Source: a virus (taxonomy: Duplodnaviria > Heunggongvirae > Uroviricota > Caudoviricetes). Taken from it: DNA of 37,725 bases. The DNA lies in IMG/VR virus record IMGVR_UViG_2721755725_000007, one strand, 5' to 3'. This document shows positions 7,474 through 9,101 of this stretch, one piece after another. The position numbers were made by a program, and so were the translations under genes. How positions within the stretch are numbered: the first letter of the stretch is position 1; every line of letters begins with the position of its first letter. The notes below the pieces were generated by a model. That model had not been told where the DNA came from and searched no databases. It saw nothing but the letters and a program-made list of their open reading frames with translations.

Positions 7474-7501
7474 TTGATTTTTCCCGAATCTGTGGTAAAT
7501 T
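7474..7501 (+). promoter_or_regulatory. candidate late promoter pR' (-35 TTGATT, -10 TAAATT) with Q-utilisation region
   Basis: Sequence GGTAAATTTG...AACGATGGG directly after Q resembles the lambda pR' -10/initial transcribed region as I recall it; 16-nt spacer. Confidence 0.5.
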
Positions 7502-7550
7502 TGCCCTAACGATGGGCGTTTTATGCCTGACGTTAGAAGATTTTTTACAC

Positions 7551-7572
7551 CCCGCCGCCTGGCGGGTTTTTT
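7551..7572 (+). terminator. intrinsic terminator, tR'-like
   Basis: CCCGCC-GCCT-GGCGGG stem-loop followed by TTTTTT; about 50 nt downstream of the candidate pR' start site. Confidence 0.65.
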
Positions 7573-7694
7573 ATGACTGAAATCGCGTCAGTACAGTAAA
7601 CGCGCTGGTGGCGGTGAATACCGGTCTTTCAGCTTGCTGGCTTTTTTGACAAGAGTTATTGGTGTGTCACGTTAACCGGAAAAGGGAAAAAAGC

Positions 7695-7892
7695 ATGCTA
7701 AAACAGCAGGATATGACAGAAACCGCCAGAGCAGTGTTTAATGAATTAAGCGTCACCGAACCGGCGACAGTCGGGGAGATTGCGCAGAATACTTACCTTT
7801 CACGCGAACGCTGCCAGTTAATACTGACCCAGCTTGTTATGGCGGGTCTGGCAGACTATCAGTTCGGTTGTTACAGACGCCTTCAGTCCTGA
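7695..7892 (+). CDS. small winged-helix DNA-binding protein, PapI/FaeA-like
   Basis: 65-aa product; AAGGGA 7 nt upstream of ATG 7695; ...TVGEIAQNTYLSRERCQLILTQLVMAGLADY resembles the PapI/FaeA recognition-helix region. The longer ORF from 7659 lacks an SD. Confidence 0.5.
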   Translation: MLKQQDMTETARAVFNELSVTEPATVGEIAQNTYLSRERCQLILTQLVMAGLADYQFGCYRRLQS

Positions 7893-7902
7893 AGGCTTTT
7901 TT
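7879..7902 (+). terminator. intrinsic terminator-like hairpin after the small winged-helix gene
   Basis: GCCTTCAG ... CTGAAGGC inverted repeat (includes the stop codon) followed by TTTTTT. Confidence 0.5.
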
Positions 7903-8042
7903 ATTTGTGGTAAATGGGCGGCTGGTGGGTGTTAGGGGCACTCACCAGCCATCTGCTCATGCGTCTGGATCACAAGCAAACCTCAGGCCCACTGCTTTGC
8001 GCAAAAGCAGAATGAGCCTATCAGAGACAGGCTTAATGATCC

Positions 8043-9101
8043 ATGTTTAACACTGTAAAAATATCCAGTTGTGAGTTGATCAACGCTGACTGCCTGGAAT
8101 TTATCCGGTCGTTACCCGAAAATTCTGTTGACCTGATAGTCACGGACCCGCCGTACTTTAAAGTGAAGCCTGAGGGCTGGGATAACCAGTGGAAGGGCGA
8201 CGATGATTACCTGAAGTGGCTGGACCAGTGTCTGGCGCAGTTCTGGCGGGTGCTGAAACCTGCCGGAAGTCTTTACCTGTTCTGTGGCCATCGCCTGGCA
8301 TCTGACATTGAAATCATGATGCGTGAACGCTTCAGTGTGCTGAACCATATTATCTGGGCGAAGCCGTCCGGACGCTGGAACGGGTGCAACAAGGAAAGCC
8401 TGAGGGCGTATTTCCCCGCCACAGAGCGCATTCTGTTCGCGGAACATTATCAGGGGCCGTATCGTCCGAAAGATGCCGGGTATGAGGCGAAGGGCAGGGC
8501 ACTGAAACAGCATGTGATGGCTCCGCTGATTTCTTACTTTCGTGATGCGCGCGCTGTCCTGGGGATAACGGCAAAACAGATTGCAGATGCCACAGGAAAG
8601 AAAAACATGGTGTCGCACTGGTTCAGTGCCGGTCAGTGGCTGCTGCCGAACGAAAGCGATTATCTGAAATTACAGGCGCTGTTTGCCCGGGTGGCAGAAG
8701 AGAAGCATCAGCGCGGTGAACTGGAAAAGCCCCACCACCAGCTGCTGGAGACGTATACTTCACTGAACCGGCAGTATGCGGAACTGCAGAGTGAATATAA
8801 ACATCTGCGGCGGTATTTTGGCGTGACGGCGCAGGTGCCGTACACGGATGTGTGGACGCATAAACCGGTGCAGTACTATCCCGGGAAACATCCGTGCGAA
8901 AAACCGGCAGAAATGCTGCAGCAGATAATCAGTGCGAGCAGTCGTCCGGGTGACCTGGTTGCAGATTTCTTCATGGGGTCGGGTTCGACAGTCAAAGCCG
9001 CGATGGCGCTGGGGCGTCGTGCAACTGGCGTTGAGCTGGAGACTGAACGTTTTGAGCAGACGGTCAGGGAAGTACAGGATTTAGTCAGTCAGAACGGATG
9101 A
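8043..9101 (+). CDS. DNA N6-adenine (or N4-cytosine) methyltransferase, beta class (motif IV DPPY precedes motif I)
   Basis: 352-aa ORF with N-terminal DLIVTDPPY and C-terminal DLVADFFMGSGST (AdoMet-binding FxGxG); orphan (no adjacent restriction gene). Confidence 0.85.
   Translation: MFNTVKISSCELINADCLEFIRSLPENSVDLIVTDPPYFKVKPEGWDNQWKGDDDYLKWLDQCLAQFWRVLKPAGSLYLFCGHRLASDIEIMMRERFSVLNHIIWAKPSGRWNGCNKESLRAYFPATERILFAEHYQGPYRPKDAGYEAKGRALKQHVMAPLISYFRDARAVLGITAKQIADATGKKNMVSHWFSAGQWLLPNESDYLKLQALFARVAEEKHQRGELEKPHHQLLETYTSLNRQYAELQSEYKHLRRYFGVTAQVPYTDVWTHKPVQYYPGKHPCEKPAEMLQQIISASSRPGDLVADFFMGSGSTVKAAMALGRRATGVELETERFEQTVREVQDLVSQNG

Follow-up and report, generated by a model that had tools for sequence, protein, structure and literature searches.

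The question raised by the locus examined here is what an orphan DNA methylase and the small gene preceding it do at the head of a prophage late operon, and how such an enzyme is held in check. The locus lies at positions 7474–9101 of the viral record IMGVR_UViG_2721755725_000007 (37,725 nucleotides from a member of the Caudoviricetes, hereinafter the window), a lambdoid, Shiga toxin (Stx)-phage-like prophage of Escherichia coli O111, and comprises a short gene for a winged-helix protein, a spacer of about 130 nucleotides (nt), and a gene for an adenine methyltransferase. A preliminary description, made from the letters alone, had proposed that the pair is either an anti-restriction or an epigenetic regulatory module; the first alternative agrees with published work on the M.EcoGII methylase, whereas the second falls, the enzyme not being of the GATC/Dam type. 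Its statements on the sequence itself (open reading frames [ORFs], motifs, terminators, and a TTGACA at 7646–7651 lacking a −10 element) all hold, and what it overlooked is a conserved structured RNA between both genes. Taken as a whole, the locus is probably an anti-restriction hypermethylation module gated by the antiterminator Q, in which a toxic enzyme is further restrained by a candidate cis-regulatory RNA. The methylase is in itself an ordinary finding; the leader RNA, which is absent from Rfam, is the new part.

In an alignment with other genera, the spacer is conserved above either flanking gene: its majority conservation is 0.88 and equal in the three phases, against 0.61–0.67 at third codon positions. 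Over 17 loci from a dozen genera, codon positions 1/2/3 show values of 0.91/0.92/0.67 in the small gene and 0.88/0.91/0.61 in the methylase gene, a pattern by which both ORFs are more than chance. Conservation, minimum free energy (z-score −3.97 for the window leader against shuffled controls) and a covariance model together mark a structured core at 7910–8012 (plus strand), whose fold became visible through the sequence variation in more distant phages. In this core, a 5-bp helix, P1 (UGGGC at 7915–7919 with GCCCA at 7987–7991), closes a three-way junction with a long hairpin, P2 (7920–7950), and a hairpin with an internal loop, P3 (7952–7980), and is followed by a further hairpin, P4 (7992–8010). 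An additional inverted repeat on the plus strand, P5 (8015–8033), stands directly 5′ of the methylase start; it is conserved as GUGAGC/GCUUAC in other genera, and N15-like phages have other Shine-Dalgarno-containing hairpins in its place. No good Shine-Dalgarno sequence precedes the methylase start, the sole AGG being within the 3′ arm of P5. The same repeat read on the minus strand (8033–8015) was considered as the end of an antisense small RNA (sRNA), for which its T run is weak.

A covariance model, R1, was built on 14 Enterobacterales leaders (12 from Enterobacteriaceae and Mixta, plus those of Hafnia and Providencia). It recovers a single plus-strand match in the window (90.6 bits) and one plus-strand match before the methylase in each of nine phages outside the model set (Yersinia P840, Vibrio ST2-1pr, Val-yong3, VHML, VP58.5, N15, PhiR46_1, phiKO2, and Aeromonas PCAh2; e-values 1e-8 to 2e-4), and it matches 88 further loci out of 91 tried, the remaining three being sequences cut off upstream. 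Of the cells in the paired columns, 92.3% are paired, against 75.6% in shuffles and 34–46% with slid partners; 25 of the 31 pairs show changes on both sides, and compensatory cells number 92 against 21 ± 4 in shuffles, with none of 500 shuffles reaching the observed values, all counted on an alignment fitted to the model. We therefore regard the leader as very likely a genuine structured RNA element. The same data bear on the alternative that the spacer works at the DNA level, as an operator array, a methylase promoter or a recombination junction. RNA hairpins are DNA palindromes too, P4 being a perfect 16-bp palindrome in several genera, and the spacer sequence is nearly invariant among loci with the small gene. 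Yet the stems change and stay paired in N15, phiKO2, and the Yersinia, Vibrio, VHML and Aeromonas phages (the 25/31 pairs mentioned above), all matches are sense-strand and keep a constant spacing to the start codon, and the scan finds no promoter-like site in the spacer, including a sigma-70 promoter for the methylase; a DNA-level element is accordingly very unlikely.

Two further candidates within the spacer were rejected. A leader peptide (from ATG 7914; MGGWWVL in other genera) has neither a conserved stop nor a conserved frame, and the three phases are equally conserved; a pseudoknot between GGU in the P3 loop and ACC in the 3′ junction clashes with the closing pair of P3 and is inconsistent across clades. 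An alternative helix, AUGGGC/GCUCAU, joining the 5′ strand of P1 to the 5′ strand of P3, can be drawn in every clade with 5–6 of 6 pairs, and we keep this two-state pairing only as a hypothesis. Searching Rfam 15 at e ≤ 10 with 7560–8080 returned noise only, no Rfam family overlaps the leaders of six other loci, and our literature searches for an RNA motif or regulator described at this locus found none.

The genes that follow the leader point to its functional context. Viral contigs scanned with a loose pattern yielded 120 loci, 78 of them with an M.EcoGII-type methylase just downstream, three too short downstream to judge, and 39 without the methylase. Among these 39, 30 are chance pattern matches on which the model is silent and nine are true model matches: one precedes a methylase pseudogene, one leads directly to holin and lysozyme genes, four precede a Mom-family gene (PF25680, 7e-71; about 22 nt after the leader), and three a C5-cytosine methyltransferase (PF00145, 1.5e-41). 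For example, the leader is directly 5′ of the Mom-family gene in contig L177 (7552–8408) and of the C5 gene in contig L122 (3306–4464). The leader is thus common to three unrelated kinds of DNA-modifying enzymes. Between leader and start codon, L122 contains CTGTATAAATGACCAG (the L177 version having GACCAT), which apart from one mismatch looks like a LexA box (CTGT-N8-ACAG). In Vibrio and Aeromonas phages, an ORF for a zinc ribbon of the Mu Com type intervenes between leader and methylase (L111, 1028–1138; L114, 1032–1148; L115, ~1029–1170), with PF10122 scores of 26.2 bits in Vibrio ST2-1pr and 35.2 bits in Aeromonas PCAh2 (cut-off 22.9); after it comes a hairpin covering the methylase ribosome-binding site, which is the Mu com-mom arrangement. 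One of these Com-type ORFs is annotated as ‘RNA polymerase subunit P’.

The com-mom system of Mu is hence an instructive comparison. Like the window locus, it combines a toxic, promiscuous adenine-modifying function with expression late only and an extra layer of post-transcriptional control, which for the window we infer. Unlike Mu, the window has no Com and carries the winged-helix gene in a comparable place. Nothing ties the leader to the Com-binding hairpin of Mu: there is no Rfam match, the Mu sequence itself being uncompared. Transcription of the window genes relies on Q antitermination, whereas Mu mom needs the C activator for its transcription and is subject to Dam/OxyR control. The leader and the small gene occur together in most Enterobacteriaceae, and the leader alone in N15-like, Vibrio and Aeromonas phages and at many enteric loci; one Erwinia locus and phiO18P have neither. 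With leader-only, protein-only, both and neither all occurring, we rejected the idea that the small protein is an obligatory partner of the leader. It is a real possibility, if rather less than probable, that the leader represents a new class of cis-regulatory RNA which, in the temperate phages infecting Enterobacterales, Vibrio and Aeromonas, gates toxic and promiscuous DNA-modification enzymes (M.EcoGII-type, Mom-family and C5-cytosine methylases) encoded where late operons begin.

The enzyme downstream of the leader (8043–9101, plus strand; 352 aa) is a beta-class N6-adenine methyltransferase of the M.EcoGII family. The Pfam profile N6_N4_Mtase (PF01555) spans residues 29–340 (e-value 7.7e-44), its PDB relatives are beta-class methyltransferases, and its best NCBIfam matches are beta-class adenine methyltransferases, below their cut-offs. 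The DPPY motif (residues 35–38, nt 8145–8156) is N-terminal, the target-recognition region is central, and the FxGxG motif, here F-M-G-S-G (residues 310–314, nt 8970–8984), is C-terminal, which is the beta-class order. Dam is an alpha-class enzyme with FxGxG N-terminal and DPPY C-terminal; the window enzyme shows the reverse order and does not fit the Dam family profile. The protein is identical to the methylase of phage 1720a-02 at 345 of 352 positions (98%) and to M.EcoGII at 325 of 349 (~93%), the latter reference having been machine-read from the supplement of PMC11551740 with obvious character-recognition errors. The 1720a-02 enzyme was called very similar to M.EcoGII by Murray et al. 2018 (PMC5778455). 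From these comparisons, the window enzyme is almost certainly an orthologue of M.EcoGII and as such a known kind of enzyme, present as a 352-aa allele with ~24 substitutions.

M.EcoGII and its sister M.EcoGI, from prophages of E. coli O104:H4, methylate adenine in any context, are unexpressed in the lysogen, and slow growth when produced constitutively (PMC5778455); they are thought to shield phage DNA from restriction (PMC5778455; PMC12707154). The window enzyme shares with them the family, the identity of ~93%, the beta-class order, the status of a prophage-borne orphan and the proposed role in restriction escape, and by analogy silence in the lysogen and toxicity upon constitutive expression would be expected of it. 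The published accounts of M.EcoGII that we examined mention neither a Q-dependent position nor two terminators, a structured leader or a winged-helix gene. The genes neighboring the locus include no restriction gene, and with DPPY...FxGxG in the enzyme and Q upstream, the earlier recognition of an orphan beta-class adenine methyltransferase heading a Q-dependent late operon is borne out.

The small gene (7695–7892, plus strand; PHROG 331, annotated ‘unknown function’) codes for 65 aa from a conserved ATG, or 77 aa from a TTG at 7659. Profile and structure searches confirm that the product is a winged helix, as had been suggested. The further claim that it resembles PapI/FaeA was an interpretation, not an observation: the FaeA profile (Pfam PF04703) gives nothing at e ≤ 1, a profile search of PDB sequences retrieves neither PapI nor PefI, and in the structural ranking PefI is only the 12th of 330 generic winged-helix matches. 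PapI, FaeA and PefI are likewise stand-alone winged helices and share its size (65–77 aa); however, they show no sequence relation to the window protein, whose fold is not specifically closest to PapI/PefI, their structural match being no better than that of dozens of other winged-helix families, and the window offers no fimbrial, Lrp or GATC-box context. On the reading in question, the small protein would act at Dam-type GATC sites as a factor of the PapI/FaeA type, and together with the methylase would make up an epigenetic switch that might operate in the lysogen. A GATC (8038–8041) does abut the methylase ATG and is kept at most loci with the small gene, but it is missing in Hafnia, and neither Lrp-type nor paired GATC-box architecture was seen. 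Moreover, the methylase is a beta-class enzyme of the non-specific M.EcoGII family, not Dam, which leaves a Pap-like GATC switch without basis, and M.EcoGI and M.EcoGII are silent in lysogens (PMC5778455). This explanation is largely refuted, and we give it hardly any credence. A second GATC (7969–7972), in the P3 loop of the window, could pair with that at 8038–8041.

What, then, is the small protein? Homologues with 78–98% identity occur in Escherichia, Salmonella, Klebsiella, Citrobacter, Buttiauxella and Pantoea, and the family is narrow, with 63 representatives at e ≤ 1e-3 among 1.84 billion proteins, numerous fragments among them. Diverged homologues (Hafnia, Mixta, Providencia and a clade with 42% identity) retain the N-terminus MLxQxDMT and helix 3, CQLILTQLVMAGL, and vary at the start of helix 3 and in the wing. 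An M.EcoGII-family methylase follows the small gene by about 150 nt at all 19 loci of the first set, and the order small gene then methylase holds at 98 of 110 loci over all sets, a biased sample in which most loci were picked via one of the two proteins. The most distant homologues (down to 42% identity) likewise precede the methylase, so that the pair noted earlier is a conserved unit in which the methylase follows every located homologue of the small protein. In a leader-seeded sample, on the other hand, 40 of 74 loci with leader and methylase have no small gene, and it is also absent from N15-like, Vibrio and Aeromonas phages. With homologues always beside the methylase and the methylase often without them, the small gene appears to be an accessory dependent on the methylase and not the reverse.

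The likeliest role for such an accessory would be that of a small nucleic-acid-binding regulator of the methylase, resembling Aca or C proteins, although this suggestion is more doubtful than not. As with C/Aca proteins, a gene harmful if unregulated has, just upstream and in the same orientation, the gene of a small DNA-binding-type protein, itself preceded by a conserved block. C/Aca proteins are mostly Xre-type helix-turn-helix or ribbon-helix-helix proteins, whereas the window protein is a winged helix; unlike C systems, the window has no C-box-like dyad that we could find, and a terminator lies between the small gene and the methylase. It thus does not have the marks of a restriction-modification controller (an Xre-type domain with a C-box dyad), there being no clear dyad in the upstream block, and it has no zinc ribbon of the Mu Com type (PF10122).

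The conserved upstream block (7633–7674, plus strand) consists of CTTGCTG (TTGCTG at 7634–7639), 17 nt, TAnnnG (7657–7662) and, further on, GTCAC. All loci with the small gene retain it, those of Hafnia, Providencia, Mixta and the 42%-identity clade among them. As a sigma-70 promoter it matches poorly, at three of six positions per hexamer and with G at the last −10 position; it may be a promoter that is weak or needs an activator, or else an operator. The TTGACA that the preliminary description had offered as the −35 element of the small gene lies at exactly 7646–7651, inside the spacer of this block; no acceptable −10 is found 16–18 nt from it, the promoter scan is empty as well, and we rejected it as it is not conserved beyond the E. 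coli lineage. At the other end, a terminator-like hairpin with a T run, P0 (7879–7902, plus strand, from the terminator scan; hairpin 7879–7896), overlaps the stop codon of the small gene. It is kept by compensatory changes in other genera, and a hairpin of this type is always found 5′ of the leader, even at loci without the small gene.

These control sequences bear on a rival explanation in which the small gene is an independent moron, inserted as a self-contained unit of promoter, gene and terminator, expressed from the prophage, directed at the host or at immunity, and merely filling the slot between tR′ and the leader. Its own conserved upstream block and terminator-like hairpin speak for this; more than half of the leader-methylase loci do without the gene, and some of these pass straight from tR′ to P0 and the leader, as an insertion predicts. 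A possibly related winged-helix protein, gp51 (hhalign probability 43%), is encoded in N15 and phiKO2 at the opposite flank of the late promoter. Against a moron, homologues were found solely before this methylase family, at 42–100% identity and alongside many Q types, and the upstream block, conserved as it is, is a poor sigma-70 promoter. We consider a moron unlikely. In phiKO2 and N15, gp51 (L107, 1303–1530; L108, 1306–1533) is a 75-aa winged helix encoded just upstream of the late promoter driving leader and methylase; at the above hhalign value, its homology to the small protein is suggestive only and was not adopted.

Upstream of the small gene, Q (6647–7468, plus strand; PF03589, e-value 5.3e-52) is a 273-aa antiterminator with DnaJ-like CXXC zinc fingers. 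Reading the letters directly, a pR′-like late promoter follows on the plus strand at 7474–7501 (TTGATT at 7474–7479, 16 nt, TGnTAAATT with its hexamer at 7496–7501); it scores 8/12, under the threshold of the promoter scan, and its placement directly after Q is the lambdoid layout. The terminator scan places a tR′-type intrinsic terminator at 7551–7572 (plus strand; hairpin 7551–7566 and T run), and finds 10 terminator-like sites in the region against 2.5 ± 1.5 in its shuffles. A methylase occupies the same slot, between Q/pR′/tR′ and the lysis genes, in SfV, phiP27, 1720a-02, Hafnia, Providencia, N15, phiKO2, and Yersinia and Vibrio phages.

Onto the observed enzyme identity, gene order, leader fold and association of the leader with DNA-modification genes, we would place the following mechanism. 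The methylase, whose gene comes first among the enzyme genes of the late operon, would be made only when Q-modified polymerase from pR′ passes both tR′ (7551–7572) and P0 (7879–7902). Phage DNA would then be methylated late, prior to packaging, and be protected on entry into a new host, the timing and the protection being suggested by the layout together with the published work on M.EcoGII. Transcripts leaking past tR′ would otherwise poison the lysogen, and a second layer of control may be provided by the ~130-nt leader (7910–8042), ending at a start codon without a good ribosome-binding site: it may limit or time translation of the toxic enzyme, or alter message stability, chiefly on terminator-leaked transcripts. 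In a two-state switch, the 5′ strand of P1 would pair with either GCCCA or the 5′ strand of P3, and could sense a ligand, a protein, or the speed of Q-modified polymerase. For the small protein, we envisage either optional control of the leader-methylase module in trans, in the way of an Aca or C protein, or a moron with no relation to it.

Several points weigh against this mechanism. The ~24 residues separating the window methylase from M.EcoGII mean that its non-specificity is assumed from relatives; the covariation was counted on the fitted alignment; and the AUGGGC/GCUCAU switch pairing, in a formal count, shows no covariation beyond shuffles. In the 42%-identity clade, the small gene occurs without the leader, and the methylase there has a normal ribosome-binding site. 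Given also the many leader-methylase loci lacking the small gene, the methylase does not require its product and the leader has no fixed tie to it, and the gene could be an insertion unrelated to either.

As an enzyme, M.EcoGII has found wide use in research (MadID, chromatin footprinting and RNA N6-methyladenosine tools), and in the accounts examined its prophage form is described merely as ‘switched off’. The present locus shows probable off-switches, namely Q-dependent read-through of two terminators, a start codon devoid of a ribosome-binding site, and a conserved folded leader. If the leader is regulatory, it would be a common, uncatalogued phage device restraining dangerous anti-restriction enzymes, and would provide a handle to predict which prophages hypermodify their DNA.

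The conserved cassette starts at tR′: where phages have other Q genes, their megablast alignments set in at 7551 (query base 152). The Q type of the window is found in only 43 of 117 related loci, by which the cassette recombines with different Q genes. Many E. coli O111:H8/NM chromosomes carry the segment 7551–9101 at 100% identity; it is present in 2,242 of 5,426 complete E. coli genomes (median two and maximum nine copies per genome), and matches 293 phage records, the majority of them Stx-converting phages. Upstream of Q lies a RusA gene (6276–6650). Downstream of the methylase come a degenerate tRNA, two sRNA genes and a NanS-p-type esterase, followed by lysis and morphogenesis ORFs.

The degenerate tRNA (9148–9207, plus strand) matches the Rfam tRNA model at 37 bits, with a 3′ acceptor strand unpaired with the 5′ strand, and ARAGORN makes no tRNA call over the whole window; the corresponding annotation in related Stx phages is tRNA-Met or ileZ/argN/argO. 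There is no stx gene at the usual site of the window prophage. The site where Stx phages have these genes is occupied by matches to STnc100 (plus strand, 9293–9485, 144.5 bits) and to AgvB, the anti-GcvB sponge sRNA (minus strand, 9487–9548, a full-length near-perfect match of 96.5 bits). The esterase gene (9696–11642, plus strand) codes for a 648-aa NanS-p-type sialate O-acetylesterase with DUF1737, SASA and DUF6645 domains; Stx phages typically have such a gene downstream of stx. A short transcript of ~65 nt is predicted between pR′ and tR′ (7508–7572, plus strand); it is a candidate match to HnrS, described in a 2026 paper as a 66-nt multicopy sRNA from late regions of enterohaemorrhagic E. 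coli prophages with up to nine copies per genome. Finally, two contigs labeled ‘Bacillus sp. MAG’ (L003) and ‘Chryseobacterium sp.’ (L012) bear the enterobacterial cassette with 100% and 78% protein identity, respectively, and their organism labels likely reflect assembly contamination or mislabeling.

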